Part shown: positions 929 through 17,481 of the stretch, in pieces
Layout of the letters: each line of letters begins with the position of its first letter
How positions within the stretch are numbered: position 1 is the first letter of the stretch
Assembly: GCA_036259475.1 (NCBI GenBank)
Contig: DATABS010000013.1
Location: 51,430-115,429 of the forward strand
Origin: Acidimicrobiia bacterium
GTDB lineage: Bacteria; Actinomycetota; Acidimicrobiia; Spongiisociales; ZC4RG35
Length of the DNA stretch: 64,000 bases
Direction: 5' to 3'
The notes under the pieces: generated by a model
What the model was told of the DNA's origin: nothing
The model's database searches: none
What the model saw: the letters and a program-made list of their open reading frames with translations, nothing else
Program-made: the position numbers and the translations under genes

Positions 929-1954
929 TCAGCCGGCGAACTGTTGGCTGCGAACGACGACCCGCTCCAGCACGCCACCGGCGGCACCCGAGTCCACCGA
1001 GTCCACCGCCGCCTCCATCCCCTCGGCGAAGCCCTCGGCTACTCCGGCGGCCACCAGACCGACGGCGGCGTTGATCACGGCGGCGTCCCGACGTGGGCCC
1101 CTCTCCCCCGCCAGGATCCGGCGGGTGATGTCGACGTTTGCCTCCACATCACCGCCGACCAGATCCGAGAGCCGCGAGCGGGCGACTCCAAAGTCCTCCG
1201 GAGTGAACTCGGCGTGGGTGATCTCGCCGTCTTTGAGGCGAAGGATGTAGGTCGGGCCCGACGTAGTGACCTCATCCAGGCCGTCCTCGCCGTGAACGAC
1301 GAAGGCCGACTCCGCCCCGAGGGATGCCAGAACTTGGATCATCCGTTCCGCCATCCTCTGATCCGACACCCCGAGGGCGTAGCGGCGTACCCCGGCCGGA
1401 TTCGCCAGAGGTCCCAGGAAGTTGAAGACCGTCGGGATCCCCAGCGCCTTCCGGACCGGTCCGGCGTGACGCAGCGCCGGGTGGTAGCGGGGAGCGTAGA
1501 AGAAGCCGAACCCCTCCTCGGCCACCAACCTCGCCGTCGCCTCCGGTTCCAACTCGATCGCCACGCCGAGGCCCTCCAGCACGTCAGCCGAACCGCACCG
1601 GCTCGAGGCGGCGCGGTTTCCGTGCTTGGCCACGACGGCACCGGCTCCGGCGGCGATCAGGGCCGCCGTCGTGGAGATGTTGAACGTCGATGATCTGTCG
1701 CCACCCGTACCCACGATGTCCACCAAATTGGAGACGTCTTCGATGGGGACCGCCACCGCGGCCGTTCTCAAGGCTTCGACCAGGCCGGTCATCTCGTCGG
1801 CGGTCTCGCCCTTCATGCGCAGCGCCACGACGAAGGCGGCCACCTGGGCCGGCTCGGCCCGGCCCTCCATGATCTCATTCATCGCGTCGCGGGCCTGCCC
1901 CCGGGTCAGGTGACGACCCGTGGCCAAGTGATCGAGGATGACCGACCAGTCCAT
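929..1954 (-). CDS. trpD: Anthranilate phosphoribosyltransferase
   Basis: DIVGTGGDRSSTFNIST, KHGNRAASSRCGSADVLE, FNFLGPLANP, VVHGEDGLDE; start set at MDWSV (1954). Confidence 0.96.
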   Translation of the reverse strand: MDWSVILDHLATGRHLTRGQARDAMNEIMEGRAEPAQVAAFVVALRMKGETADEMTGLVEALRTAAVAVPIEDVSNLVDIVGTGGDRSSTFNISTTAALIAAGAGAVVAKHGNRAASSRCGSADVLEGLGVAIELEPEATARLVAEEGFGFFYAPRYHPALRHAGPVRKALGIPTVFNFLGPLANPAGVRRYALGVSDQRMAERMIQVLASLGAESAFVVHGEDGLDEVTTSGPTYILRLKDGEITHAEFTPEDFGVARSRLSDLVGGDVEANVDITRRILAGERGPRRDAAVINAAVGLVAAGVAEGFAEGMEAAVDSVDSGAAGGVLERVVVRSQQFAG

Positions 1955-1997
1955 TGGATGGGCGAGTCTAGGTTTCGCCCGGGCGACGCCGACCCGG

Positions 1998-2747
1998 TCA
2001 GTCGAGCGGGTCGACCGGTGGAGTGGCACCCGGCTCGGGCAGGCCCGTCCCACCCGGCTGGACCTCGGGAACCTCCTCGACGTCGAAGTCGCCTACTTCG
2101 ATCTCCGACGTTTCCACTCCGGGTCGGAAGAGCTGCCACAGGCCCCAGGCGATCAGGCCGCCCACCAGGGGGAACACCAGATACACCCACAGCCCCTCGA
2201 AGCTTCCGCCGACGACGGCCGGACCGAACGACCGGGCGGGATTCACCGACGCACCGGAGAAGGGAAGCCCAGCGAAGTGCACCACCGTCAGCGTTAGCGA
2301 GATGCCGACGGCGGCGGTCGCCGGAGCCGTCCGCGTGGAGGCGAGGATCACCAGGACGAAGATGGTGGTGAGGACCAGTTCCGACATCATTCCGAGACGG
2401 AGCGCCGGGTAGCCGGTGGTGGTCTGGGCGACCGCATCCCGGTTGGTGACGATGAGTAGCGTGAGGGAGGCGAGAATGCCGCCGGCGAACTGGGCGATCC
2501 AATAGCCGACGAGGTCGCTGGCCGACGTCCGGTTGTCGAGGTACATGGCGAGAGTCACTGCCGGGTTGAAATGCCCCCCGGAGACGTGTCCCACGGCGTA
2601 CAGGGCGGCCAGCAGGCCCAGCCCGAAGCCGAACGGAACGGTGAGTAGCGGAGTGCCGATATCCGCCGACGCCAGGATCGTCATCGAGCCGAGGACGACC
2701 AGGATGAAGGTGCCGACCAGCTCTGCCAGGTACTTGTTGATGACCAC
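1998..2747 (-). CDS. aqpZ: Aquaporin (MIP family, AqpZ-like) with acidic C-terminal tail
   Basis: Two NPA boxes (SGGHFNPAVT, GASVNPARSFGP); GTG start at 2747 after GAGGAG. Confidence 0.92.
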   Translation of the reverse strand: MVINKYLAELVGTFILVVLGSMTILASADIGTPLLTVPFGFGLGLLAALYAVGHVSGGHFNPAVTLAMYLDNRTSASDLVGYWIAQFAGGILASLTLLIVTNRDAVAQTTTGYPALRLGMMSELVLTTIFVLVILASTRTAPATAAVGISLTLTVVHFAGLPFSGASVNPARSFGPAVVGGSFEGLWVYLVFPLVGGLIAWGLWQLFRPGVETSEIEVGDFDVEEVPEVQPGGTGLPEPGATPPVDPLD

Positions 2748-2827
2748 GATTTCTCCTCGATGGGGCTCGACCGCAAACTGAATGTACAAGCCCGACGGCT
2801 CGCGGAGGTGGCAAAGTGTTGACGACG

Positions 2828-3175
2828 GTGAGATGGGGCGCCGTCTTGCTCGCTCTGGGCGTCGGCGTTCTCGTCCTGGCAGGTTCGGCTCTGATCCTCT
2901 GGCTTGCCCTGTCTCTCGTAGGTGTGGACGGCGCCGCCGGGGCCGCCACCACCTTCGGCACCCTCCTCGGCTTCGCCGCCGCCGGCTGGATCGCCGGCCG
3001 CCGCGCCGCCGTGTCTCACGTCTTCCACGGTGGGATCGCCGCCCTGGGGGTGGCCCTGGCCGTGACCGTCACCGCCGTCCTCGGCGGCAGCCCCGCCCCG
3101 ACACCACAAGTGCTGCTCCTGGCGTTTTTCGCCCTCGTCATCGGCGGCCTCACCGCCTGGCTCGCCCGCCGCTGA
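2828..3175 (+). CDS. Small 4-TM hypothetical membrane protein
   Basis: Four hydrophobic segments; fills the gap between aquaporin and rnpB. Confidence 0.7.
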   Translation: MRWGAVLLALGVGVLVLAGSALILWLALSLVGVDGAAGAATTFGTLLGFAAAGWIAGRRAAVSHVFHGGIAALGVALAVTVTAVLGGSPAPTPQVLLLAFFALVIGGLTAWLARR

Positions 3176-3253
3176 GGCTTGTTGTCAGCCGCGCGTGTCG
3201 CCCAGCGCCACGTTGGCGGGAGGAACCTCGAATACCGGGCACCACCGCGGCGT

Positions 3254-3259
3254 TACACT
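3254..3259 (+). promoter_or_regulatory. Likely -10 box (TACACT) of rnpB
   Basis: TANNNT hexamer about 7 nt upstream of the RNA 5' end. Confidence 0.55.
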
Positions 3260-3266
3260 ATGTGAA

Positions 3267-3628
<362 letters not shown>

Positions 3629-3633
3629 AACGT

Positions 3634-3659
3634 CGAACCCCCTCTAACCGGGGGGTTCG
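3634..3659 (+). terminator. Hairpin after rnpB (element-supplied)
   Basis: CGAACCCCC / GGGGGTTCG 9 bp stem. Confidence 0.65.
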
Positions 3660-3719
3660 GCCATTCCTACGCCTAGTTGAACGCCGCCATTCCGCCAGAA
3701 TTCCGCGAGAGCGCCGCCC

Positions 3720-3840
3720 CGAACACCGGCCGCTACATCACCGTCACCGGGAAGCGGATCGGCGGCGGCAGCATCGAACACCGCCAAGAGGAGCTCGAGG
3801 CCGAGCACGCCCGATGGTTCCCTGCACGCGACGGCCAACA
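3720..3840 (+). pseudogene. Fragment resembling a phage primase-polymerase (NrS-1-like) C-terminal motif
   Basis: GRYITVTG followed by IEHRQEELEAEHARWF recalls the R[FY]xTxTG...I..rq..L motif; upstream catalytic part missing. Confidence 0.4.
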
Positions 3841-4215
3841 TGATGGTCCGCCCGTCGAATCCGGCGCAACCGAAACCGCCAACGAGAGCGGGACGCCATC
3901 GTTGTCGCCTACGCCGCCCGCGGCTGTATCTGCAGACCGGACGTTGCCCACGATCGGGCCAATGGTCTCCGCCACGTCACTATTGCCCACGATGACGGCT
4001 GCCCTGCCGCCGACTCCGGATCGATGCTGATCGTCGGACGTGGTCACCAAGAGTCCGACGCGGAGTGGGCCGGCGACCTCCTCGAGCTGATGAGGGCGAT
4101 CCGATGACGCCGACGCAGATCGTGAAGCCGGGTTTTTGGTACCGAAGTCGTCCTCGGCGGTTGCACCGCCGCCTTTCTCTCCACGCCGGATTCCTAGACC
4201 CCTCGGAGGTTCGAG

Positions 4216-4623
4216 ATGACCAAGCAGGTCGGAAACACCGCCCCGTACAAGAAGCTCCGCGCCGAGTTCATGGCTCGCCAGGGACGCTGGGGGACGTGTG
4301 CCCGGTGCGGCGAGCTGGTCGATATGAAGCTTTCGGGCCGGACGGCGATGGGTCCGTCGGTCGATCACATCGTGCCGACATCGGCCGGCGGCGCCTGGCT
4401 CGAAGTCGACAATCTGCAACTCGTACATCGGAGCTGCAATAGCCGGAAAGGACGCGGGGAGGCTGTCGGTGCGAGTGACCGGCGGTTCCGAAAGGATGGG
4501 CATTGGCTTGTGAAGCCGTTCGACCGGGACCCCGCCTCGCCGCATATGTTTCGGGCTTGCGATAACCCGCGGTGCGCGTTCTGTCTCGCCGAGGGTTACC
4601 GCACTGAGGCTGCCGATGTGTGA
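4216..4623 (+). CDS. Phage-type HNH endonuclease
   Basis: CARCG, VDHIVPTSAGG...DNLQLVHRSCNSRKG; GGAGG before the ATG. Confidence 0.9.
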   Translation: MTKQVGNTAPYKKLRAEFMARQGRWGTCARCGELVDMKLSGRTAMGPSVDHIVPTSAGGAWLEVDNLQLVHRSCNSRKGRGEAVGASDRRFRKDGHWLVKPFDRDPASPHMFRACDNPRCAFCLAEGYRTEAADV

Positions 4624-5031
4624 GCCGATCCGCATCGGAGACGTCGAGCGGGGAGCCGACGTGGTCGGGGTGGGCCCGCGTGCCCGCGTCCCGCGTGGGA
4701 TTGGGTGGGAAGTTCCTGCAGGCCCATGACCTGCGCTTCTGTAGCGCTTCTGAAGCGGGGCTGGAACGCGATCAACCGGGATTGAGAACGCGTCCAACAA
4801 CGTGCCTGCTTGTCGGACGTGGCACTCTGCTAACCGACACTCATGGATCGGGCGATCGAAGTGGACATGCGCTCTTTAACCCCGGTAAGAGCTACATGTC
4901 ACAATCCTGGTTCTCGGTTCGTTTCGCGCACCGACAGGTACGACGTCAGCCTAGATAATCGTCTACGACCCGACTAGGTGACCTGACAGCGGCGGTTCGA
5001 AGCCGACAGAGACCGACCGCCACCTCGGCCG

Positions 5032-6345
5032 CTACCAACTCCGGGTGGGTCCGGAGCCCGTCGGCGGCTCGACTTCATGCACCGAGATCGAGAGGAGACG
5101 TGGCTCGAACACGTCGTTGAGCACCCGGTCGAGCCGTCCGACGATGTCGTTGAGGTCCACGGCGTGACGCAGGTCCTCGGCGAATCTCTCCAACGTCACC
5201 AGGGCGTCATAGCGGTTGCGGTTGAAGCGTCGATCGATGAACTTCTGCACCTGGTCCCGTAGGGGCCGGAAGGCGGAGACGAACAGGAAGGTAGTGATCG
5301 CGACGGCGGGCTTCGAATCGATCAGGGGCGACGCCGCCACGCTGCCCACCAGCATCTGTGCCACCACGACGAAGGCGACGTACACACCGCCGAGGAGACC
5401 CGTGGCTATGGCATAAACGGTGGTGCGGTTGAGCACCCTTTCGATGTCCCACAGGCGATAGCGAAGGATGCCGGCGAAGAGCGCCAGGGGAATGAGCGCA
5501 AAGGCAGGCTGGAACGTCCGATACAGGGCCACCGGAGGCTCGGGGATATGGCGACCGGCGAGGACGTTGGTGGCGGGCGACATGCCGTGGATGACGAGGA
5601 AGACGATCCCGAATCCGACCGAGGGGAGGAGCGCCCAAAAGAGCAAACGGGCCTGAGCCTGGCCGATGGCGTCGTCCTTGATCGCGACGCGGTATGCCTG
5701 TGCGGCCGCGCCGGCCGCAGGTACGAGGAGGCCGAAGAACAACAGGAGTGTGGCGGGCCGAGCCGGCCCCTCCAGCCGTATCGAGAGGAAGACGGCCCCG
5801 ACGCTGGCCGTCAGGTAGAGGGGGATGAGGGCCGCCGGCCGCCAGCGAGGCACCGGGCGTCCATCGGGGAAGAGCAGGAGGGCGTAGACGTAGGCGAGTC
5901 CCGCCAGCACATGGGAGGCCACCTGTGCCAACGTCTCCAACGGGGTGAACGGCAACTGCTCCAGAACCGCCTGCGAGGTGAGGTTGAAGACACCGGCCAC
6001 ACCCACCAGGGCCGTGGCCAGTAGTCGTGCCGTCCAATCACGGGGACGCAGCTTGAGCAGGACCGCCGCCATGGCCAGATGGACGGCGCTGAAGAGATAG
6101 TCCGCGACGATCTGCAATCCGGAGGGAACATTGTGGGAGGCATCCGCCGCCCGCAAGGCCACACGAGCGAAGATTCCGCTTCCCAGCCCATGGACGTGGA
6201 GAGACTCGTGCAGGTCCGCCGAGGTCGAGGCCGCCACGGCCAGCAAGCCCTGGCCTAGGACGAGGAGCCCCCCGAGAGCATAGAGGCAAAAACCGAGCAG
6301 GAGGGCCAGGTCAGCGCGTCGAAACCGACGCTCACTCTCCGCCAT
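5032..6345 (-). CDS. Multi-pass membrane protein resembling the input region of sensor proteins, with no kinase domain
   Basis: About 10 hydrophobic segments; ILRYRLWDIERVLNRTTVY and DRRFNRNRYDA..LE.F...LR..VDL motifs; 4 bp downstream of the cupredoxin gene. Confidence 0.75.
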   Translation of the reverse strand: MAESERRFRRADLALLLGFCLYALGGLLVLGQGLLAVAASTSADLHESLHVHGLGSGIFARVALRAADASHNVPSGLQIVADYLFSAVHLAMAAVLLKLRPRDWTARLLATALVGVAGVFNLTSQAVLEQLPFTPLETLAQVASHVLAGLAYVYALLLFPDGRPVPRWRPAALIPLYLTASVGAVFLSIRLEGPARPATLLLFFGLLVPAAGAAAQAYRVAIKDDAIGQAQARLLFWALLPSVGFGIVFLVIHGMSPATNVLAGRHIPEPPVALYRTFQPAFALIPLALFAGILRYRLWDIERVLNRTTVYAIATGLLGGVYVAFVVVAQMLVGSVAASPLIDSKPAVAITTFLFVSAFRPLRDQVQKFIDRRFNRNRYDALVTLERFAEDLRHAVDLNDIVGRLDRVLNDVFEPRLLSISVHEVEPPTGSGPTRSW

Positions 6346-6349
6346 GCAT

Positions 6350-7612
6350 TCAGCCCGACACGGTGACGGTTCCCACCATCGGCGGGTGGATCAGGCAGGC
6401 GTAGCGATACGTACCCGGACTAGAGAACCGCAGGGTGTACTCGACGTAGGCATCGCTGTACAGGACACCTGACGACCAGAACCCGGATCCGTCCCAGGTA
6501 CCCCCGTCGACGACGATCGGATCCTCACCCTCCGTCTCCTCGACCTCAGGGGCGCCGCCGGCAGGATAGAAGATCTCCTCGTTGGCCTGCACCGTCCCAT
6601 CCTCCAGCCGCTCGTAGATGGGGAAGTACTCGGGCACATCGAAGCTGATCGTGTGGGGTCCGAACATCAGCCAGGTGACGGGCTCGCCGACCTCGGCCTC
6701 GATGGTCTCGGGGATGAACTCGTTGAGCAGACCTTCCACCCGCTCGTCCACCAATCCGCTGAAGTTGCCGGTGAACGCCTCGCCCCCGAAGACGAACTGG
6801 CCCTCGTTGGCCGACTCGTAGGCCTGGCGGAAGGGCTCGACCACCTCGTTCAGCTCCTCGCGGGTTTGGAGGTTGACCTCGCTGGCGGACGGGATCGGCT
6901 CGTCGGGGGGCACCACCTGCATGGTCCCACTGTGGAACGAGCCGTGCACTGAGCAGAAGAACTCGTACTCGCCGGGCTCGATCGACTCCGACACGTTCAG
7001 CTCGAAGGTGTTGCCCCCTTCGGTCTCCAACCCGATGAACCCGCTGTTGTAGTAGGCCTCCGTCCCGTCGAAGGGGCCGAGCTCCTGGTTGGGGCAGGGC
7101 CCACCATCGTCGGGGATCGGGCCCTCCTCGACCAGACAGGGCTGCGCGATGGTCTGGTCGATCTCGCCCTCGGACTCCCCTTCCTCCGGGGGCTCCGCTT
7201 CCTCACCGGCCGACTCCGGTGGCGGCTCCTCGCATCCATAGAGCACGGGCAGCGTGCACTCGGCCGCGAAGTAAGTCTCGAGCACCTCGGGAGGGACCTG
7301 ATCCTCGGGCACCGCGCCCCATTCGTCGAACAGGGGCTTGGTGATCGATAGCACCTCGTTCACCTTGGTTCCAAAGGTGACCGTGTGAGCCTCACCCGTC
7401 CAATCCTGCCTGAATACCACCGTATCGCCCGGATGTACCTGGATGGTGTCGGGGAAGTACTTGATGAACTGGGTGGCGAACTCGTCATGGTCGTAGTCCA
7501 CCCTCACCGTGACCTGCTCGTCCGAGTCCGAGGCGCAGGCTCCGATCAGCAGCACGAGAGCTATCCCGGCCAAGCCGACAACGCCACGACCCGCGCCAGC
7601 ATGTCGCCTCAT
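6350..7612 (-). CDS. Lipoprotein with two cupredoxin (plastocyanin/azurin-like) domains
   Basis: Lipobox LIGAC; HTVTF...FFCSVH and HTISF...YACLIHPPMVG; start 7612 after GGGAG. Confidence 0.85.
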   Translation of the reverse strand: MRRHAGAGRGVVGLAGIALVLLIGACASDSDEQVTVRVDYDHDEFATQFIKYFPDTIQVHPGDTVVFRQDWTGEAHTVTFGTKVNEVLSITKPLFDEWGAVPEDQVPPEVLETYFAAECTLPVLYGCEEPPPESAGEEAEPPEEGESEGEIDQTIAQPCLVEEGPIPDDGGPCPNQELGPFDGTEAYYNSGFIGLETEGGNTFELNVSESIEPGEYEFFCSVHGSFHSGTMQVVPPDEPIPSASEVNLQTREELNEVVEPFRQAYESANEGQFVFGGEAFTGNFSGLVDERVEGLLNEFIPETIEAEVGEPVTWLMFGPHTISFDVPEYFPIYERLEDGTVQANEEIFYPAGGAPEVEETEGEDPIVVDGGTWDGSGFWSSGVLYSDAYVEYTLRFSSPGTYRYACLIHPPMVGTVTVSG

Positions 7613-7681
7613 AGTGAATCCTCCCTTTGCCTTCGATAGACGCCGCCACGATCGCACAGCGACCATTACGACGTCGTTACG

Positions 7682-7954
7682 GTGGACAGCCCTCGGAGAG
7701 CCGACCACCCGCCCACTTCATCCGGAGACACAATACCGGCCAAGAAGGTTGGAGTGACCGCTCCCAAGGCGAGAGCTCTTGCTAGTCATCTTGGCCTCGT
7801 CGGCAACCTGACCTATCACAAGCACGTTCGACTACCGGACGGAAAACTATGGCCACGCTACAGCGATGCCGCCGTGAAGCTGTTGAAAGAGCAGGTTCCC
7901 ATCGTGGATCTAGAAGAGGTCTGGTCACAGTATTGGGCCGACGGCGGCAGGTAG
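7682..7954 (+). pseudogene. Probable 3' remnant of a foreign gene (possibly DUF3644-like C-terminus)
   Basis: Protein-like tail LASHLGL..NLTYHKHVRL...RYSDAAVKLLKEQ; no good start or RBS; more AT-rich than neighbours. Confidence 0.3.
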
Positions 7955-8237
7955 CGCGCCCCGAGGCTCGGATCTTCGCTCTAGGTAGGCTGGACGAGTG
8001 GCAGTGGCATTGCTGCCGGTCGATTGGCACGCATTCCGTCGGCCCGGGTCGGTAAGTACCAGGTTGGCTAGAAACCACTTGGACCCGGCCGGAGGTGCCG
8101 GCCGCGTTCCGCGAGCATTCCGCGGGAGGGTCGGGAAAAGGCGGTATACCTGTAGAACGTCGTAGAACTATCGAGAAGGTGTTTTCTCGGTCAGAGCAAA
8201 ATTACGGCGCGTTTCCCCTGGTAGTCGTATATCTGAT

Positions 8238-8265
8238 GACAGAATCCGGCTTACAGGGGGACTCG
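8238..8265 (+). repeat. attR-like core; displaced copy of the rnpB 3' end
   Basis: GACAGAATCCGGCTTACAGGGGGACTCG, one C-to-G difference from 3601-3628. Confidence 0.92.
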
Positions 8266-8271
8266 TAGCGT

Positions 8272-8299
8272 GGAGAGGCTCCCGAAAGGGGGCCTCTCC
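8272..8299 (+). terminator. GC hairpin after attR, probably the original rnpB terminator
   Basis: GGAGAGGCTCCC-GAAA-GGGGGCCTCTCC 12 bp stem with a GNRA loop. Confidence 0.75.
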
Positions 8300-8325
8300 G
8301 CCTATCCGCCTATCCGCTCCTTCCG

Positions 8326-8814
8326 CTACGCCCCCAGCTTGGCCCGGATTGCCTTGATGTCGGCCGACATCTCGTCGCTCGAATCGCGGCTCTGAGGCGA
8401 ATCACGGTGGATCAGATAGGCCGTGAGCAGAACCATCGTGGCCAACTGGAGGAACTCGCTCTGCCAGTTCTCCAGCACGCTCGACATGAACCTGACCCAG
8501 AACTCACTGCTGAAGAAGGCAGGCGCCGAGTCGCCGTGCTGGAGCGCCTCATGGACTTCCTGGCGGTACTGGAAATAGAGCTGTCCGATCCACGATATGA
8601 AGAAGAGTCCAAACAGAGTCAGGCTGAGCAGATGATCGTGAAACCAATTTCCGTTCGGCTGCCTCGAGGTCGTCGACGGCTCGGACGGCTCATTCGTCCC
8701 GTTGCCGAGAGCCGCCTGCAATTCCTCTTTCGTCATGGACGACCGACCAGCAATCTCGTTCTCGCGGGCCTTCTCCAACAACTCGTCCTTGGACATGTCG
8801 CTCAGTTCGGACAC
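8326..8814 (-). CDS. DUF6766-like membrane protein with an N-terminal Rho_N-like helical domain
   Basis: LSDMSKDELLEKARENEIAGRSSMTKEEL; ENWQSEFLQ..MVLLTAYLIHRDSPQSRD; GTG 8814 after AAGGAG. Confidence 0.8.
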   Translation of the reverse strand: MSELSDMSKDELLEKARENEIAGRSSMTKEELQAALGNGTNEPSEPSTTSRQPNGNWFHDHLLSLTLFGLFFISWIGQLYFQYRQEVHEALQHGDSAPAFFSSEFWVRFMSSVLENWQSEFLQLATMVLLTAYLIHRDSPQSRDSSDEMSADIKAIRAKLGA

Positions 8815-8840
8815 GGATGCTCCTTTCAAGCCGGCAGGCT

Positions 8841-8865
8841 CTACCCCGAATGCGAACCGACTAAC
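8841..8865 (-). promoter_or_regulatory. SigF/SigB-type general-stress promoter (GTTA-N15-GGGTAG)
   Basis: Close to the GTTT-N15-GGGTA consensus, 26 nt upstream of the start. Confidence 0.5.
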
Positions 8866-9075
8866 CGGAAGGACTGCCACAGGAGTCGATCATCGTCTTA
8901 GGATCACCGCCGACTTCCCTCCCATCACAGGCCCTCCAAGGCTTGCCTCAGATTCCGAGCCTTCGAAGGAAGCTCCTTCTGCGGCTGATCGACGATGGAC
9001 GGAGATCGGTCGGCGCGACTCCTATATCGCTCTCGCTGCAGTGCCTTGGCCGTACAAGTCCGTTCCTTTCTTTTC

Positions 9076-9753
9076 TCAGTCGTTTCGGTCGCCGGATACG
9101 GCTCCGGAAGGGCGCGTGAACACTCGGACGGACTCGGGCGAGAACGACTCAGACTGGGTCTGATCGACGGTCCACTCCGATGAGTGGCGCAGGATGGGTT
9201 GGCGGCCGGTGAGGCGGACGAACTCGGCTACCAGCTGACCTGGGTCGCTGTCGGGGATGTTGAGCAGCCTGAATCCGGGGTCTCCTTGTTCATCCACCCA
9301 TCGGACCAGCTGGCTCTCGTCCGCCAGTGCCCAAGCGATGATCATGGCGGCGTGCTCGGTCCCTCGCTGTTCCCAGACGAAGTCATGGCTGTCCCAGGTG
9401 GGGAGGCGGCGGCGGGAGACGAAAGCCTCCTGGTCGGCGGCCGTGAGGTTGGACTCGGCCCAGGCATGGGCGAGCTCGTGAATGACCACCTCGCGGTCCT
9501 CGGTGCACACCTTGACGACCCTGGAATCGGGGAAGTAGAGGCCTCTACGCAGCCGGCAAGCGGTGGTGTCCTCGAAGAACTCGAACGTCACATCGGGCAG
9601 AACCAAACCAGCGGCGGCAAAACGCTCCGCCGCCCAGGCGACCATCGGATGGTCGGACGACGTTGCCTCTTGGTCAACAGAGGAGGGAACACCGGAGGTG
9701 AACACCAGCAGAGCGATGATCGCCGGGAGCGGAGAGCGTATGAGCCATGCCAT
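9076..9753 (-). CDS. Secreted hypothetical protein with an HExxH metallopeptidase motif
   Basis: Signal peptide; VIHELAHAW and downstream EHAA. Confidence 0.7.
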   Translation of the reverse strand: MAWLIRSPLPAIIALLVFTSGVPSSVDQEATSSDHPMVAWAAERFAAAGLVLPDVTFEFFEDTTACRLRRGLYFPDSRVVKVCTEDREVVIHELAHAWAESNLTAADQEAFVSRRRLPTWDSHDFVWEQRGTEHAAMIIAWALADESQLVRWVDEQGDPGFRLLNIPDSDPGQLVAEFVRLTGRQPILRHSSEWTVDQTQSESFSPESVRVFTRPSGAVSGDRND

Positions 9754-9868
9754 CCGGCGAACATGCGGCCAGGCAGCTGTCGCCTCGCTGGCAAGCGGCT
9801 GTCAGATTGCTGTCGTGCCCACCGACCGGAACTATTTAGCTACTGCACACATCTAGTAGTCTGCGCGG

Positions 9869-10339
9869 GTGAACGTCACCCAAACGATCGAGGAGCTGGT
9901 CGAGCGGCTCGACCGTTCCGTCACCGGCATCACCCGTAGAGCCGCCATTCGCCGCCTCTACCGGCGTCTGGCCTCGGTGGCCGGCACGGAAGTGGAACGT
10001 TCCTCCTATCTGGTGCTCAAGCAGCTCGTCGCCGACGGGCCTACCCGAATCACCGACCTCGCTCATGAGCACGGGGTCGAACCTTCGACCATGAGCCGCC
10101 ACACGAGCGGGCTGGAGGAATCAGGGCTGGTGGTGAAGCGAGCCGATCCGTCCGACCGCCGGGTGGCGCTGGCGGAGGCCACTGGCAAAGGGGCCAGTGT
10201 GGTGGAGAAGGTGGAGGCTGAGCGACACCGGATATTCACCGCCATCCTCTCGCGCTGGGATCCCTCCGACGCCGCCCGCTTCGTCGACCTCATCGAACGG
10301 TTCGACGCCGACGTCACCGACCTACTGCAGCAACCATGA
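9869..10339 (+). CDS. MarR-family regulator
   Basis: ITDLA..HGVEPSTMSRH..LEESGLV.KRADPSDRR; overlaps the MFS start. Confidence 0.92.
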   Translation: MNVTQTIEELVERLDRSVTGITRRAAIRRLYRRLASVAGTEVERSSYLVLKQLVADGPTRITDLAHEHGVEPSTMSRHTSGLEESGLVVKRADPSDRRVALAEATGKGASVVEKVEAERHRIFTAILSRWDPSDAARFVDLIERFDADVTDLLQQP

Positions 10340-11892
10340 CCGACACCGCTCTGCCGGGGACACCGGCACCCCGCCCGGTGCCGATGTCGCACCGAGAGAT
10401 CCTCCTCGTCTTCGTCAGCCTCATGTTGGGGATGTTCCTCGCCTCTCTCGACCAGACGATCGTCGCCACCGCCTTGCCGACGATCGTCGGCGAGCTGGGG
10501 GGCCTCGAGCACCTTTCTTGGGTCGTCACCGCCTATCTAGTCACTTCCACGGCCAGCGCTCCTCTCTACGGAAAGCTGTCCGACCTCTACGGCCGCAAGA
10601 TCATGTTCCAGGCGGCGATCGCCATCTTCCTGCTCGGTTCGGTCCTCTCCGGCCTCTCCCAGTCGATGGGCCAGCTCATCGCCTTTCGGGCCGTCCAGGG
10701 CATCGGGGCCGGCGGGCTGATCGTCATGGCCTTGACGATCATCGGCGACGTCCTGTCTCCGCGCGAGCGCGGGAAATATCAGGGATACATGGGGTCGGTC
10801 TTCGCCGTGTCATCCGTCGGCGGTCCCTTGCTCGGTGGCTTCTTCGTCGACAACCTGGACTGGCGCTGGGTCTTTTACATCAATCTGCCCGTCGGGCTGG
10901 TGGCCCTGGCTGCCACCGCCCGGTTCCTCCACCTCCCCACTCGCCGCCGGGAGCACCGCATCGACTATCCGGGCGCGATGCTGCTCGTTTCTGGGGTGAG
11001 CGCAGCCCTGCTGGTCATGGTGTGGGGCGGCAGCGAATACGCCTGGACGTCACCTTTGATCATCGCTCTGGGGGGAGCAGCCGTCCTGCTGCTCTCACTC
11101 TTCCTGGCGCAGGAGCGACGGGCCGAGGAGCCGATCCTCCCCCTTCGCCTGTTCCGGAACAAGGTGTTCAGCATCACATCGGCTGCCGGCTTCATCATGG
11201 GTGTCGCCATGTTCGGAGGGATCATCTTCCTGCCGCTGTTCCTGCAGGTCGTGACAGGGGTCAGCGCCACCCAATCCGGCCTCTTGCTCGTTCCTCTCAT
11301 GGCCGGGATCCTCACTACCTCCATCGTCTCCGGGCGACGCATCAGCCACCACGGACGCTACAAGCGTTATCCCATCGCGGGGATGATGCTCACCACCGTC
11401 GGCCTCTATCTGCTCTCCACCATGGATCCGGACACCGGCGTCGTTCTCGCCTCTGTCTACATGGTGATCTTCGGCAGCGGACTGGGACTGGTGATGCAGG
11501 TGCTCGTCATCGCCGTCCAGAACGCGGTCGATGTGACCGACCTGGGTGCCGCCACCTCCGCCACCACCTTCTTCCGCTCGCTCGGAGGCTCCTTCGGCAC
11601 GGCGCTCTTCGGTGCCGTCCTTTCCGCCCGCCTCACCTCCGAGATCGCCACCCGCCTGCCCGACGTCTCGGGTACCGTCCCGGTGAGCCAGCTCACCGGT
11701 AGTCCCGCTCTCCTGGCCCAGCTTCCCGAGCACATCCGCGGTCCGCTGATCGAAAGCTTCTCGGTGTCGATCACCGACGTGTTCCTCGTCGGAATCCCTT
11801 TCGCCTTGGCGGCCCTGGTCCTCGTGATCTGGCTGCCCGAGCTGCCCCTGCGCGACACGGCCCATGTGGGCGGAGCGCCCACCGAGCTCTGA
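10336..11892 (+). CDS. DHA2 (EmrB/QacA) MFS efflux transporter
   Basis: LDQTIVATALPTIV, GKLSDLYGRK, 14 TM pattern. Confidence 0.95.
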   Translation: MTDTALPGTPAPRPVPMSHREILLVFVSLMLGMFLASLDQTIVATALPTIVGELGGLEHLSWVVTAYLVTSTASAPLYGKLSDLYGRKIMFQAAIAIFLLGSVLSGLSQSMGQLIAFRAVQGIGAGGLIVMALTIIGDVLSPRERGKYQGYMGSVFAVSSVGGPLLGGFFVDNLDWRWVFYINLPVGLVALAATARFLHLPTRRREHRIDYPGAMLLVSGVSAALLVMVWGGSEYAWTSPLIIALGGAAVLLLSLFLAQERRAEEPILPLRLFRNKVFSITSAAGFIMGVAMFGGIIFLPLFLQVVTGVSATQSGLLLVPLMAGILTTSIVSGRRISHHGRYKRYPIAGMMLTTVGLYLLSTMDPDTGVVLASVYMVIFGSGLGLVMQVLVIAVQNAVDVTDLGAATSATTFFRSLGGSFGTALFGAVLSARLTSEIATRLPDVSGTVPVSQLTGSPALLAQLPEHIRGPLIESFSVSITDVFLVGIPFALAALVLVIWLPELPLRDTAHVGGAPTEL

Positions 11893-11935
11893 CCCCCTTT
11901 CCAGTTGCGAGCTCCTGTTCGCTACGTTGAGCACC

Positions 11936-12316
11936 GTGGATCGCTACCAGGACGTCGTGGAGACCCAGATCCGGGAGGCATTGGAGCGGGGCGATTTCGA
12001 TGATTTGCCGGGAACCGGACAACCTCTGAACTTGAAGGACGAAGGACCGGCTTGGTGGGCTCGGCGCAAGATCGAGCAGATCAAGGCGGAAGACCGGATC
12101 ACCGAGATAGCCCGGGAACTCCAAGACCAGATCGATCAGATGTGGTCGCTTCCTGACGAAGAGTCGGTCTCCGAAGCCGCGGCGGATCTGAACCAACGCA
12201 TCGAGGCGCTCAACAGCCAGCTTCCCGGTGATGCCGCCATCCCCGTGATCGACCCGGCCGAAGCAACTCGCACTTGGCGGAGCATGTTCCGAATCCGACA
12301 GCGACCTACGAACTGA
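11936..12316 (+). CDS. DUF1992 (DnaJ-family-associated) domain protein
   Basis: VETQIREALERGDFDDLPGTGQPL; leaderless GTG 7 nt after TACGTT. Confidence 0.85.
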   Translation: MDRYQDVVETQIREALERGDFDDLPGTGQPLNLKDEGPAWWARRKIEQIKAEDRITEIARELQDQIDQMWSLPDEESVSEAAADLNQRIEALNSQLPGDAAIPVIDPAEATRTWRSMFRIRQRPTN

Positions 12317-12353
12317 CGTCACCGACACGGCGTGCGTGCCATCCTGCCTGCGC

Positions 12354-13787
12354 ATGGATGGCAGTTACGACGTGATCGTGATCGGCGCCGGCGCCGCAGG
12401 TGAGAATGCGGCGGCTGCCGCCGCCCGAGGGGGCCTCGACGTCGCCATCGTGGAACGCGACCTCGCCGGCGGCGAATGCTCCTACTGGGCTTGCATGCCG
12501 TCGAAGACGCTGCTCAATCCCGGCAAGGTGCTCGAGGTGGCCCGACGGGCGCCAGGAGCCTCCGCCTCGGTGACCGGGCAGGTGGATGTGGCCGACACCC
12601 TGGAGCGCCGCAACCGGATCGTGCATGACTGGGACGACTCGAGCCAGGTCGAGTGGCTGAAGAATGAAGGCGTCGCGCTCATCCGCGGCCACGCCCGCTT
12701 CACCGGGGAACGAAGGCTGAGCGTCACCGCTTCCGACGGGTCGAAGACCGAGTTGCGGGCAACGTCTGCAGTCGTGATCGCCACCGGCAGCCGGCCGAGC
12801 GATCCCGGCATCCAGGGGATGGAAGAGGTCGATACCTGGGGAAGCCGCGAGATAACGGCCGCCGAGGCGGTTCCCGCCCGTCTGCTCATCGTCGGCGGCG
12901 GGACCGTGGGCGTGGAGATGGCCCAGGCATGGGCCTGGCTCGGCTCACACGTGACTCTGGTCCACAACTCGAGGCACCTGCTCAAGAGTGAGGAGCCCTT
13001 CGTGAGCGACGAACTGCGTGGCGCCTTCGAACGGATCGGAATCACCGTCCTCACCGAGACGGAAACCGAGCGGCTCCGAACCGAGGACGATGGGAGCACG
13101 GTCGCCTCCGTCCGCCACGGCGACGGGACCATCGAGGAGATCGACGCCGACGAAGTCCTGGTGGCAACAGGTCGCCGGCCGAGAACCGATGACGTTGGCC
13201 TCCTCGAGATCGGTCTTCAGCCGGGCCAGCGGCTCACGGTTGACAGCCACATGCGGGTCCAGGGAGTCGAAGCAGGATGGCTCTATGCCGTCGGCGACGT
13301 GAACGGGCGGGCTCTCCTCACCCACATGGGCAAATACCAGGCGCGTATCGCCGGAGCCCACATCGCCGGCCAGCGCGAGGCGGCCGTATCGGAGGTCTCG
13401 GCCGTGCCCCGCGTCGTGTTCACGAGCCCGGAGATCGCAGCCGTGGGACTCACCGAGACCGAGGCGCGAGCGGCCCGCATCCCGGTCGGGACAGTCACCT
13501 ACGACATCGGTCAGGTGGCCGCCGCCAGTGTCCTCGGCCGAGGCTATAAGGGCACGTGCAAGCTGGTGATCGATACCCGACGCCAGATCGTCGTCGGAGC
13601 CACATTCGTGGGGCCGCAGGTAGCCGACCTGCTCCACTCAGCCACCGTGGCAATCGTCGGTGAAGTCCCCCTCTCCCGGCTCTGGCATGCGGTGCCGTCC
13701 TTCCCGACGTTCAGCGAGGTGTGGCTCCGTTTGCTCGAGGCCTACCGAGACGGCGGCTGGGACCCTTACCAGTCCGAGCCGGGCTGA
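12354..13787 (+). CDS. Pyridine nucleotide-disulfide oxidoreductase (dihydrolipoamide dehydrogenase-like)
   Basis: VIGAGAAG, GGECSYWACMPSK redox disulfide, GGGTVGVE, GDVNG. Confidence 0.92.
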   Translation: MDGSYDVIVIGAGAAGENAAAAAARGGLDVAIVERDLAGGECSYWACMPSKTLLNPGKVLEVARRAPGASASVTGQVDVADTLERRNRIVHDWDDSSQVEWLKNEGVALIRGHARFTGERRLSVTASDGSKTELRATSAVVIATGSRPSDPGIQGMEEVDTWGSREITAAEAVPARLLIVGGGTVGVEMAQAWAWLGSHVTLVHNSRHLLKSEEPFVSDELRGAFERIGITVLTETETERLRTEDDGSTVASVRHGDGTIEEIDADEVLVATGRRPRTDDVGLLEIGLQPGQRLTVDSHMRVQGVEAGWLYAVGDVNGRALLTHMGKYQARIAGAHIAGQREAAVSEVSAVPRVVFTSPEIAAVGLTETEARAARIPVGTVTYDIGQVAAASVLGRGYKGTCKLVIDTRRQIVVGATFVGPQVADLLHSATVAIVGEVPLSRLWHAVPSFPTFSEVWLRLLEAYRDGGWDPYQSEPG

Positions 13788-13885
13788 ACCGATCTTCGGC
13801 GCCTCGCCACATCCGATTCTCGCCGAGTAGTCCCACCTGGCGCTCGTTACAGTGAGCGCCCGTCAGTCAAGGAGCCCTGCCGCCG

Positions 13886-14680
13886 ATGTCACCCTCCGAC
13901 AGACCTTCAGGTCGCCCCCGCCTCGTTTTCGGCGACGACGGTGCGCCGCCGGCTGACACGGCCTGGCGCTGGCTGACCTCCCAGGAGTGGTCGGGATGGG
14001 ACATCGAAGTGATGACTGCCGACACCGATGACACCCGCGTCAAATGGGGTGAGCCTCCGGCCGTCGAGGAGTGGACACCCACGTGGGGCAGATCCGAAGC
14101 TATTCCCGGCGCGGTGGCCGTGCGGTTTCTCAAGGCAGCCACAGATCCCAGAGCCATGCTGGCCGATCGGGAAGACGCCGATGTCATCCTCCTCGGTCTG
14201 AGTGCCCACAGCATGCTGCGAGGCATGGTGACCGGGAGCACAACGGAGTGGCTCCTCCACCACCCACCATCGCCGCTGGTCGTGGCCCAAAGCCCCGAAC
14301 AGGTGAACAAGGTCACTGTGTGTGCGGACGGATCGACCCACTCGCGAGCCGCTCTCGGCGCTTTCACCGCTTTGCCGCTGGCGTCGGAGACCCGGGTGAC
14401 CGTCCTGGCGGTCGACGACGGACGCACCGACGCCCGCCACGCCGCTCAGGAGGCGGCGGCGCTGCTGGACGGCAAGGTGCGAGAGGTGAGCATGGTCGTG
14501 GTTGAAGGCCAGCCGACCACCGTGATCCTCGAACAGGTGGAAGAGAACTACTCCGAACTGGTCGTCCTGGGGACGCGGGGACTGACCGGCTGGCAACGGC
14601 TCGTGCTTGGATCCACTGCTTCGGCGGTGGTCCGGGGGGTCGCCTGCACCAGCCTCGTTGCCTCCGCCGACATGGGTTAA
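13886..14680 (+). CDS. Tandem universal stress protein
   Basis: GSTTEWLLHHPPSPLVV and VVLGTRGLTGWQRLVLGSTASAVV. Confidence 0.88.
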   Translation: MSPSDRPSGRPRLVFGDDGAPPADTAWRWLTSQEWSGWDIEVMTADTDDTRVKWGEPPAVEEWTPTWGRSEAIPGAVAVRFLKAATDPRAMLADREDADVILLGLSAHSMLRGMVTGSTTEWLLHHPPSPLVVAQSPEQVNKVTVCADGSTHSRAALGAFTALPLASETRVTVLAVDDGRTDARHAAQEAAALLDGKVREVSMVVVEGQPTTVILEQVEENYSELVVLGTRGLTGWQRLVLGSTASAVVRGVACTSLVASADMG

Positions 14681-14690
14681 CATGCCCACC

Positions 14691-14797
14691 ACGGAGGGGA
14701 GTAGCCCCCAACTGGAAGATCGACATCCTGGCGCCGGATCGAGCGGCGTCCGGTCTCCAGGCCGGTTGAGATCCTCGACGGCGGGCAAGACCTCCGA
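14691..14797 (+). promoter_or_regulatory. yybP-ykoY (Mn2+) riboswitch
   Basis: GGGGAGTAGC at the 5' end, TCGACAT internal motif, GGCAAGACC at the 3' end, CGGAGG/CCTCCG closing stem, upstream of a TerC gene. Confidence 0.85.
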
Positions 14798-14845
14798 CAC
14801 GGACATGAAGACGTCCGGGTCGGGGTCGTCCCGTCCGGTGAAGGA

Positions 14846-15868
14846 ATGCTCAACCTCTCAATGACACCGCTCTCCGTCCTAGCAGCAGACGAACCTGCCG
14901 CCGGCTCGTTCGCCAGCTTCGATGTCCCCGGCTGGGTTTGGGTGACCTTCCTCATCGGAGTCGCCGTCCTGCTGATGGTCGACCTGCTCCTCGTTCACCG
15001 ACGGCCTCACGTCATATCGTTCCGGGAAGCGGCTATCGAGTCCTCGATCTGGATCGCCCTCGGCCTCTCCTTCACGCTGGTGATGCTGGTGTGGCAAGGG
15101 GGCGGCGCCGCCGGAGAATACCTGGCCGGCTACCTCATAGAGAAGAGCCTGTCGGTCGACAACGTCTTCGTCTGGGCGGTGATCCTCAGCTACTTCGCCG
15201 TACCGGCCGAGTATCAGTTCCGGGTCCTCTTCTGGGGCGTGTTCGGAGCGCTGGTCTTGCGGGCGGTCTTCATCTTCGCCGGCGTGGCGCTGATCGAGCA
15301 GTTCGACTGGATCCTGTATGTCTTCGGCGCTTTCTTGATCTTCACCGCCTTCCGGATCGCCCGGCATGAGGAAGCCGAGATCCACCCCGAGGACAACCCG
15401 GTTCTCAAGTTGTTTCGCCGGGTCGTGCCTTCAAGCACCGAATACGACGGCCAGAAGTTGTTCACGCGCCGCGCCGGCCGGCTTCTCGCCACTCCCCTAT
15501 TCGCAGTCCTGGTGTTGATCGAGAGCACCGACGTCGTCTTCGACGTCGACTCCATCCCCGCCATCCTCGCCGTCAGCCGGGAGCCCTTCATCGTCTTCTC
15601 GTCGAACGCGTTCGCCATTCTCGGATTGAGAGCCCTCTATTTCCTGTTGGCCGGCATGGCTGGACGGTTTCGGTATCTCAACCTGGGCCTCGGGGTGATA
15701 TTGGCCTTCGTGGGCGTGAAGATGGTCATCGCCGAGTGGTACCACATGCCGATATGGCTCAGCCTCACGGTTATCGCGGTGGTCCTGACCGTCACTATCG
15801 TCGCCTCGCTCCGCGAGGAACGCCGGGAGAATGCGACCTCCGACGCTCCCACCGCGGCGGATACGTAA
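14846..15868 (+). CDS. terC: TerC/Alx-family membrane protein (Mn2+ homeostasis)
   Basis: YLIEKSLSVDNVFV, RVLFWGVFGALVLR, DVVFDVDSIPA, NAFAILGLRALYF. Confidence 0.94.
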   Translation: MLNLSMTPLSVLAADEPAAGSFASFDVPGWVWVTFLIGVAVLLMVDLLLVHRRPHVISFREAAIESSIWIALGLSFTLVMLVWQGGGAAGEYLAGYLIEKSLSVDNVFVWAVILSYFAVPAEYQFRVLFWGVFGALVLRAVFIFAGVALIEQFDWILYVFGAFLIFTAFRIARHEEAEIHPEDNPVLKLFRRVVPSSTEYDGQKLFTRRAGRLLATPLFAVLVLIESTDVVFDVDSIPAILAVSREPFIVFSSNAFAILGLRALYFLLAGMAGRFRYLNLGLGVILAFVGVKMVIAEWYHMPIWLSLTVIAVVLTVTIVASLREERRENATSDAPTAADT

Positions 15869-15892
15869 GCGCCGGCACCGTCTTCGCTGAAT

Positions 15893-15919
15893 TTGCAAAA
15901 ACTAGCGTTGTGCTATCCT
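15893..15919 (+). promoter_or_regulatory. Sigma70-type promoter, TTGCAA ... TGnTATCCT (extended -10)
   Basis: TTGCAA 15893-15898, TG 15911-15912, TATCCT 15914-15919; spacer is short (15 nt). Confidence 0.6.
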
Positions 15920-15925
15920 GAGGCA

Positions 15926-16045
15926 GCAGCGGGGAGCCGGTTTCCCCACCACACCGGTGAGCCCGAGAGCGTCCAGGCGTACCCTCCTCCCCGATCTTCG
16001 GATCGGATCCTCTCCGCCTCTCTCCCGCTCTCGGGCTTCCCCGCT
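15926..16045 (+). ncRNA. Candidate structured small RNA (or otsA leader) with CU-rich loops
   Basis: Five nested stems including a perfect 12 bp helix and a cUUCGg tetraloop; begins about 7 nt after the -10 box. Confidence 0.6.
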
Positions 16046-16083
16046 ACCAGGGTTAAGGTCGGCGTAATGAGTATCTCACTCCC

Positions 16084-17460
16084 ATGACCGACTCGTCATC
16101 ACGCCTTGTCGTAGCGGCGAATCGCCTACCCGTTCGATGGGATTCCGACGACCGGCGCTGGGTCACCAGCCCGGGCGGTCTGGTTTCGGCCCTGGTTCCG
16201 ATCCTCCAGGAACGGGGCGGAGTTTGGGTCGGTTGGAACGGCTCGGTCGGAGGCGAATCTGAGCGATTCACGGCCGACGAGATCGACAACCTGTCCGTGC
16301 CTCTCGACGAGGAACAGGTCAACGACCACTACTACGGCTTTTGCAATGGCACGATCTGGCCCCTGTATCACGACGCCATCCGTCCCCCGGAATTCCATCG
16401 TCACTGGTGGCGCAAGCATGCCGAGGTCAACCAGCAGTTCGCCGACGCCATCATTTCGGTCTGCCGACCGGGTGACACCATCTGGGTACACGACTACCAG
16501 CTGCAGTTGGTGCCTGAAATGGTCCGACAGCACCTCCCAGGCAACCGGATAGGCTTCTTCCTCCACATCCCGTTCCCTCCGCCCGAGATATTCGAGCGGC
16601 TTCCGTGGCGGCGCCAGATCCTCGAAGGACTCCTCGGTGCCGACTACATCGGCTTTCAGACCCGCAGAGCAGCACTCAACTTCGCCGCCTCGGCTCGCGA
16701 GTTCGCCGGAGCCCGCGGCCCTGCCGCCTCGATGCGCTACGCCAACCGGGAGGTGAGGGCCGAGCCGGTCCCCATCGCCATAGACACGGCTCACTACGCC
16801 GGAGCCGCGTCTGACCTCTCGGTTCAGCGGCTCGGGGCCGAGCTCAGACGCGATCTCGGTGACCCCCCGACCATCATTCTGGGGGTCGATCGTCTGGACT
16901 ACACGAAAGGAATCGACCTTCGGCTTCGAGTGCTCGAGACGTTCTTCGACGAGCATCCCGAGCTGATCGGCAAGGTCTCACTCGTTCAGATTTCGGTGCC
17001 CAGCCGCGAGGATGTGGACGAATACCAGGAGATCCGCCGCCAGGTCGAAGAGATGGTCGGTCGGGTGAACGGAAGATTCGCCCAGGCCGGGTGGACGCCG
17101 ATCCACTACGTGTACCGCTCGATCCCCTTCGAAGAGCTCATCGGCGCCTATCTCACCGCCGACGTGATGCTCGTGACGCCGCTCCGCGACGGCATGAATC
17201 TGGTTGCCAAGGAGTACATCGCCACCCGGGTCGACGACTCGGGCGTCCTCATACTCAGCGAGTTCGCGGGCGCTGCCGAGCAGCTCGAGGAGGCGCTGAT
17301 AGTCAATCCATACGACCTCGATGCACTCTCGGCGACAATCCATCAAGCGGTGACAATGGGAATCGAAGAGCAGCGCCGGAGGATGCGGCGTCTTCGCCGC
17401 AAGGTCACTCGTTGGGATGTTCACAGCTGGGCGCGCCACAACCTCGAAGAGATCGCCTGA
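16084..17460 (+). CDS. otsA: Trehalose-6-phosphate synthase (GT20)
   Basis: [58 protein letters not shown]; a glucosylglycerol-phosphate synthase cannot be excluded. Confidence 0.9.
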
Positions 17461-17481
17461 TGACGAGGCCTGCGGTCTGAG

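Follow-up and report, generated by a model that had tools for sequence, protein, structure and literature searches.

A probable remnant of an integrative element at the RNase P RNA gene of an Acidimicrobiia genome, and a clade of integrases linked to rnpB

Integration of mobile elements into the 3' ends of stable-RNA genes is textbook knowledge for transfer RNA (tRNA) and transfer-messenger RNA (tmRNA) genes. In islands of this kind (the Islander/TIGER class; PMC4383910, PMC12424338), the integrase gene lies beside its target and the identity block is the 3' end of the structured-RNA gene; the gene is regenerated, the displaced 3' fragment stands at the far end of the island, and empty sites, tandem arrays and decayed remnants are found. 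Islander itself searches tRNA and tmRNA genes only (PMC12424338). In 2025, the attachment site attB of phage phiEf11 was located inside ffs, the 4.5S RNA gene, and reported as a novel non-coding RNA target; tRNA/tmRNA and csRNA are the known non-coding RNA targets given in that paper, and rnpB goes unmentioned (PMC12540744). Here, we analyse a stretch of 64,000 nucleotides (nt) from an Acidimicrobiia genome (contig DATABS010000013.1; hereafter the window) in which a 4.6-kb insert stands at the 3' end of rnpB, the gene of the RNase P RNA. The elements that we find at rnpB share with tRNA/tmRNA islands all the properties listed above, from the position of the integrase to the decayed remnants; they differ in that the target is rnpB and in that the element also brings a terminator hairpin, and the copy in the window differs further in having no integrase. 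They resemble phiEf11 in being a case of a temperate element, a small essential structured-RNA gene and an identity segment (27 nt in phiEf11) beside the integrase, while the Firmicutes host, the RNA and the integrase lineage of phiEf11 are all different. No paper found by full-text literature search names rnpB as an attachment site (a prior listing in the TIGER database is possible); the mechanism is thus of the known tRNA/tmRNA type and the rnpB target is new to the literature searched.

We conclude that the insert very probably came into rnpB through the mechanism of tRNA/tmRNA islands and that its integrase was lost afterwards. The case begins with a repeat that an initial annotation of the window, made from the sequence alone, had picked up: the last 28 nt of rnpB (GACAGAATCCGGCTTACAGGCGGACTCG), which comprise the conserved ACAGAAUCCGGCUUA segment and the 3' strand of helix P1, recur at the far end of the insert (Table 1), 27 of the 28 positions being identical and C3621 versus G8258 being the sole mismatch. 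When up to 3 mismatches are allowed, a 20-nt probe has no sites in the 64 kb other than these two, where shuffled sequences are expected to give 0. Both ends of the insert are therefore marked by a direct repeat of the 3' part of the target gene, as in RNA-gene islands. Also as in such islands, the target gene is intact with a 3' end supplied by the element: the RF00010 match is untruncated (model positions 1-367, gathering score 100; this is the single RNA gene that Rfam finds in the window), the left copy forms helix P1 without a mismatch in the Rfam alignment, as the annotation had it, and an element-type hairpin follows. The annotation also noted that the right copy would add a G-G mismatch, consistent with drift. 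G8258 would indeed face a G in P1; in contigs of sequencing runs X1, X2 and X4, however, this position is a C and the repeat is perfect (28/28), so that the G appears private to this assembly, through either drift or assembly error. As a private change, it fits drift of a displaced, unselected fragment.

Table 1. Features at rnpB and in the insert (positions are those of the 64-kb window; a point marks features given without strand).
Feature	Position	Strand	Remarks
rnpB, RNase P RNA, bacterial class A	3267-3632	+	Rfam RF00010, 282 bits, intact
attL core, left copy of the 28-nt identity block	3601-3628	+	GACAGAATCCGGCTTACAGGCGGACTCG
Element-borne hairpin, GAACCCCCTCTAACCGGGGGGTTC type, current end of rnpB	3632-3661	+	-23 kcal/mol, z -3.8
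P' arm	3662-3720	.	DNA similarity to L100 and L086
HNH endonuclease gene	4216-4623	+	Pfam HNH 1.3e-8; PHROG 338 2.8e-19
437-amino-acid polytopic membrane protein, second gene of the cassette	5032-6345	-	third-position G+C 0.81
Secreted double-cupredoxin (blue copper) protein	6350-7708	-	Pfam Copper-bind, Cupredoxin_1
P arm of the former attP	8100-8237	.	Architecture common to L100, L234, L218 and L226
attR core, right copy of the rnpB 3' end	8238-8265	+	Displaced native end
Native rnpB terminator hairpin, orphaned 4.6 kb from its gene	8266-8304	+	-32.8 kcal/mol, z -6.9

Each copy is followed by a hairpin of its own, another point on which the annotation was right, and the two computed hairpins are strong and different from each other; both lack a T-run, which is why neither is listed by a consensus terminator scan. 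Comparison with other loci (given L numbers here) tells the two apart. In the closest relatives (L005, L011, L077 and L012), rnpB gives way within 4-6 nt to GTGGAGAGGC...GCCTCTCC(GCCTAT), a hairpin that is the orthologue of the right one in the window and not of the left one, which makes the right copy with its hairpin the native gene end, pushed 4.6 kb away. A short contig from soil run X4, in which 3616 is joined to 8262 via a variant P1 strand, likewise represents the rnpB of a related strain running into the native hairpin, an empty site. The empty-site alleles (left flank, core, right flank) for which the annotation proposed to look are thus present, both in the four relatives and in this contig. 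The left flank is formed by trpD, the synteny of which with rnpB extends to over 50 genome bins of Acidimicrobiia and assigns the organism to this class; within the sequence examined, no syntenic locus has a second rnpB core. The left hairpin, with AACCCCCTCTnAnCnGGGGGTT directly after the regenerated rnpB end, is of the type that characterizes one subgroup of the integrase clade described below (L045/L086/L100/L231/L238). It also stands 3' of rnpB in L085, L086, L100, L013 and L045 and in 23 metagenome contigs, and it is found wherever an integrase of the L045 group adjoins rnpB, in agreement with the suggestion that the element supplied a replacement 3' end plus terminator. The idea that it might be another native terminator was dropped, given that it co-occurs with integrases and also follows the internal junctions of tandem arrays.

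Similarity to integrase-bearing elements extends from both copies of the repeat into the insert. Window 3601-3716 matches the attL side of L100 by blastn (79% over 117 nt), and the attR side of L100 is matched at 71% by window 8148-8264, a match that takes in about 90 nt to the left of the repeat. On the left, the similarity to L100 and L086 covers the hairpin and some 60 nt beyond it; in the P' arm, about 50 nt align with the last codons of the integrase gene (minus strand in both loci), after which the similarity ends. This arm carries ATTCCGCCAGAA (3689) and ATTCCGCGAGAG (3700), which are candidate arm-type sites. On the right, the P arm carries ATTCCGCGGGAG (8117), GTAGAAC twice (8152, 8162), GGTGTTT..GGTCA (8178-8193) and ACGGCGCGTTTCCCCTGGT (8205-8222), and the ATTCCGCG and GTAGAAC repeats are again candidate arm sites. 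In the roughly 140 nt to the left of the displaced copy, the window, L100, L234, L218 and L226 share ordered motifs, namely GTAGAA two to three times, GGTGTTT..GGTCA and ACG..CGT..CCC.GGT; the window is aligned with the other four loci over 8150-8222, and this P-arm architecture is a second property of the hairpin subgroup. A motif resembling ATTCCGCGAGAG has 4 matches in the window, 3 of them within 130 nt of the two cores; in L100, the corresponding positions of both arms are occupied by another motif, ATTCAACAAGAG. Such motifs would fit arm-type integrase sites that co-vary with the element.

The integrases concerned are tyrosine recombinases. L045 has a gene for one of 378 amino acids, convergent with rnpB and 0.9 kb away, preceded by a helix-turn-helix (HTH) open reading frame (ORF) that may encode an excisionase; in L100 and L086, 44-80 nt separate rnpB from the integrase or what is left of it, and near full-length integrases stand beside the left-type hairpin in L045/L085, L224, L231 and L238. 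When the L045 integrase was used as the query against genomes, 18 loci were obtained; the integrase is directly beside rnpB in 7 of them, and a direct repeat of the locus's own rnpB 3' end is found further on in L100 (28 nt), L094 (27 nt) and L089 (25 nt). A profile scan of species-representative genomes gave 452 relatives, and 92 loci from the two scans were examined. A full rnpB adjoins the integrase in 65 of these, and a further two are short contigs whose end falls in the rnpB core, making 67 of 92. The rnpB 3' end is 35-100 nt past the integrase stop in most rnpB-linked loci; it is repeated over at least 22 nt in 14 loci, at a distance of 3.1-10.5 kb (8.1-10.5 kb in 11 of the 14). Among the hosts are Mycobacterium aurum, Mycolicibacterium, Nocardioides, Pimelobacter simplex, Blastococcus, Geodermatophilus, Microbacterium, Propionibacteriaceae and Acidimicrobiia. 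Integrases linked to rnpB form one large subtree of a neighbour-joining tree, and the sister group from Streptomyces, Kitasatospora and Micromonospora shows no rnpB linkage; throughout the alignment, there is no variation at the catalytic residues R198, K237, H306, R309, H332 and Y342 (R, K, HxxR, H and Y). An integrase family with rnpB specificity, which the annotation had surmised, is what this clade amounts to.

Some further observations concern individual members of the clade. The rnpB-adjacent integrase of L086 (3691-5076) has two in-frame stops and is without the segment around the first catalytic arginine; it is a pseudogene. Two or three phased GCGGAC(T/C) repeats lie no more than 40 nt from the integrase stop in L116, L119, L127, L128, L130, L131, L134, L135 and L138, and they occur in many clade members irrespective of the target; the other arm of L119 has AGTCCGCAGAA twice. 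Both kinds of repeat are likely arm-type sites.

L089, from a Microbacterium bin, is the one rnpB element of the clade that was annotated. It spans 9.6 kb (1565-11179) between its 25-nt rnpB repeats and encodes an integrase (Pfam Phage_integrase), HTH proteins, TerL, an SPP1-type portal, an HK97-type capsid and DUF6093; no tail gene was found among the ORFs scanned. The element resembles a capsid-forming phage satellite. Satellites of this sort are known as the cf-PICI type, and the likeness lies in the 9.6-kb size and the combination of integrase, HTH regulators, large terminase, portal and HK97-type capsid without tail genes among the ORFs scanned, most bounded relatives being of 8-10.5 kb; it is a likeness by description. 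The insert of the window differs in having none of those genes, just an HNH endonuclease. IMG/VR contains two viral contigs of 10-11 kb that end inside rnpB beside a clade integrase, and in L119 (IMG/VR, 15 kb) the integrase is followed by an rnpB 3' fragment only, the flanks of which match both ends of L089, so that L119 shows the joined attP form of the L089 element. A search of IMG/VR with the left-hairpin pattern returned unrelated AT-rich phage terminators only. The nearest cultured phages are the Arthrobacter phages Kukla and TripleJ, with an integrase 39% identical. In the temperate Kukla (L215 2571-2640, PQ362669) and also in TripleJ, ACAGAACCCGGCGTATCGGTCAACCCATCCA and a hairpin come directly after the tyrosine integrase gene and in the same orientation; in Kukla, the sequence right after the gene reads ACAGAACCCGGCGTA... 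and then the hairpin, with a weak Rfam match (E 0.035). The ACAGAACCCGGCGTATCGGTCAACCCATCCA segment of the two phages is a candidate attP matching the rnpB 3' end.

Elements at rnpB are found in several states of reduction. A metagenome scan for an rnpB end plus an element-type hairpin gave the 23 contigs mentioned above. An L045-group integrase is present in 10 of them, near full length in 3 and reduced to C-terminal pieces in the remainder; others, with flanks of several kb, have no integrase. In L226, as in the window, two copies enclose an insert without an integrase, in this case of 3.45 kb, and tandem arrays occur at rnpB in L100 (7101-10259), L234 (4108-8317) and L218 (147-2222), where the second rnpB-end copy is itself followed by an element-type hairpin and at least two units stand head to tail. 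The segment that completes the essential rnpB is kept in every member of this series, and the insert of the window would represent one stage in a common erosion path.

What remains of an element in the window is modest. The two copies enclose 4609 nt (3629-8237), of which the first 0.6 kb has no assigned gene and 7709-8237 is of lower G+C and appears non-coding; third-position G+C (GC3) was used to tell real genes from spurious ORFs in this genome of about 66% G+C. The annotation had spoken of phage-like genes between the copies, and this holds for a single one: the HNH endonuclease gene is the sole insert ORF that matches Pfam or PHROGs phage families, and the two large genes encode a membrane protein and a double cupredoxin, with no integrase. 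The nearest relative of the HNH gene (63% identity) shares its small contig with genes for an excisionase-type HTH protein and a Prim-Pol. The insert contains no virion structural, lysis or replication module, PHROGs matching the HNH endonuclease alone, and it is no prophage by this measure. Compared with all loci by tblastx, its unassigned parts gave low-complexity noise only, and except for the HNH gene no insert ORF has relatives among the fetched loci. The search for an integrase was equally negative: no Pfam match in 3629-18162 (20 ORFs scanned), no match in the window by tblastn with the L045 and L086 integrases, and none with a hidden Markov model of the clade run over all six frames of the 64 kb, the best hit having an E of 0.47 in a weakly coding frame. 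An integrase gene beside the att site, as RNA-gene islands have it, is therefore missing from the insert, and a clade tyrosine recombinase (R..K..HxxR..H..Y) convergent with rnpB is absent from the window; the integrase trace in the insert is limited to DNA-level similarity to the last codons of the gene. The insert is best read as a remnant, a deletion derivative of an rnpB element and not an intact one.

The other two genes of the insert form a cassette of host type. The pair (window 5062-7682) has 81% DNA identity to cassettes that lie in ordinary chromosomal contexts without rnpB, and the idea that it is cargo specific to the element was dropped for this reason. The double cupredoxin, for which there are 468 homologues, is probably a lipoprotein, as its LLIGAC motif indicates, and the membrane protein has no match in Pfam, PHROG or NCBIfam. 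Both genes also occur together in L240 (3889-6454), L241 (7597-10177) and L242, with different neighbours in each genome, and are a conserved two-gene unit of soil Acidimicrobiia. This 2.6-kb host-type cassette either rode in on the element or later replaced the element interior. In runs X3 and X4, an 18-nt in-frame insertion (CTTCCTCCGGGGGCTCCG) is seen at window 7179, in the acidic linker of the cupredoxin gene, and the depth over 3735-4640 and 7600-8500 is far below that of the cassette; these populations may carry a different version of the insert ends.

The surroundings of rnpB vary as well. Downstream of the gene, the stretch 8266-17463 varies between relatives: in L011, rnpB is followed by 2.6 kb and then by homologues of window genes 12249-17460, and in more distant Acidimicrobiia the SRAP gene (window 17464-18162) comes directly after rnpB. 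The genes at 8326-12316 (DUF6766, an unknown, MarR, MFS and a DJC28 domain) are missing from the rnpB site in every locus examined. In the gene itself, the rnpB match is split by 50-160 nt in L032 (reoriented 14916-15533), L015, L016, L035, L041 and L042, all Acidimicrobiia bins, which suggests lineage-specific helix expansions or insertions inside the RNase P RNA.

To account for the insert, we propose a small mobile element that had a tyrosine integrase and an attP composed of a copy of the 28-nt rnpB 3' end, with its own hairpin on one side and a phased-repeat arm on the other. Recombination of this attP with the chromosomal rnpB, catalysed by the integrase within the 28-nt identity block, would have yielded on one side attL, in which the host 5' part of rnpB, the core and the element hairpin make up an intact rnpB, and on the other side attR, the native 3' fragment and native terminator displaced 4.6 kb downstream. 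The integrase gene and most of the element would later have been lost by deletion or replacement, leaving both arms, the approximately 50 nt that resemble the integrase 3' end, the HNH gene and the 2.6-kb host-type cassette. Because it has no integrase of its own, the insert is probably now fixed in place. The central claim of the annotation, an integrative element that used the rnpB segment as attB, thus finds support in the repeat, the empty sites and the homology of the ends to integrase-bearing elements; we infer the recombination event itself, the function of the arm sites and the order of the losses. Several observations nevertheless weigh against this proposal. Neither an integrase nor a recognisable protein-level remnant of one exists between the repeats or anywhere in the window, so integrase-mediated entry is deduced from relatives only. 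A cassette of host-like GC3, found elsewhere at 81% identity in ordinary chromosomal contexts, takes up over half of the insert, and the interior may not be what originally integrated. No circle or same-strain excision joint is present among the assembled contigs, which cannot show rare forms. Finally, the syntenic L011 also lacks 8266-12248, the 4 kb that follow attR on the right, meaning that the region is variable for further reasons.

Could the insert be alive rather than fixed? It would then be a non-autonomous mini-element, moved in trans by the integrase of a full-size relative that is resident or arrives by infection. There is precedent in the CIMEs, integrase-less, att-flanked cis-mobilisable elements described next to streptococcal integrative and conjugative elements (ICEs), which the insert resembles in its functional-looking att sites, its lack of a recombinase and a site used by integrase-bearing relatives; it differs from them in the approximately 50 nt of integrase-3'-end-like sequence, which points to a deletion derivative. 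The motif architecture of the family is kept in both arms, the 28-nt repeat is perfect in three other samples, units that keep both ends but have no integrase, or a truncated one, are found repeatedly (L226 and the first unit each of L100, L218 and L234), and the tandem arrays show repeated integration at occupied sites. Yet the 64 kb contain no cognate integrase, no excision joint was seen (in assembled contigs) and the insert depth is about that of the flanks in run X1, the truncated integrase pieces of relatives resemble a decay series, and the cargo differs among units, with no mini-element sequence found spreading between genomes; on balance, we regard a living mini-element as unlikely.

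Alternatively, the island might be larger, reaching from about 3629 to 12248, with the copy at 8238 as an internal junction of two tandem elements. This would agree with the lack of 8266-12248 at the rnpB site of L011 and with the arrays of L100, L218 and L234, but the right copy is followed by the native-type hairpin and not by the element-type hairpin of internal array junctions, the window has no third copy of the 28-mer even when 8 mismatches in 28 are allowed, and the genes at 8326-12316 bear no mobile-element signature, all of which makes the larger island quite improbable. It is hardly credible that the repeat arose by chance, as a chimera of the assembly or through a local duplication that had nothing to do with site-specific recombination. 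The core ACAGAATCCGGCTTA is near-universal in bacteria, so mis-joins at rnpB are conceivable in metagenome assemblies, and the rnpB depth in the runs is 10-100x the flank depth because many species share the gene. However, 0 matches are expected by chance, and the flanks match different predicted partners (the native terminator on the right, the element arms inside). The stretch is, moreover, contained in soil metagenomes of several studies, and run X1 assembled both junctions independently, each in a single contig (one over 3416-7817 with 3 differences, another over 7824-8460), contradicting the artefact in the second copy that the annotation had named as grounds for refutation. The attL junction was found in no RNA-seq run searched. 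An element that entered at rnpB and then decayed is accordingly the reading we prefer.

A broader hypothesis can also be formulated: rnpB could be the dedicated landing site of an undescribed integrase clade on capsid-encoding, satellite-like elements of 8-10 kb, and the integrase-less units (the window, L226 and the first units of L100, L218 and L234) could be miniature hitchhikers moved in trans. We consider this combination rather unlikely; if true, the hitchhiker units would constitute a two-level parasitism anchored in an essential ribozyme gene.

The preferred reading of an eroded rnpB element has consequences of its own. The RNase P ribozyme gene joins the RNA targets of integration, and not as a one-off, given the coherent integrase clade across many actinobacterial genera. 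Island finders limited to tRNA and tmRNA genes miss rnpB elements. In occupied genomes, the true rnpB 3' end and its terminator are foreign, and orphan rnpB fragments are integration scars rather than pseudogenes. For the genetics of Actinomycetota, the clade is a source of integrases whose attB is present universally and in single copy. Lastly, the window documents how an element decays while the segment that completes an essential gene is retained.

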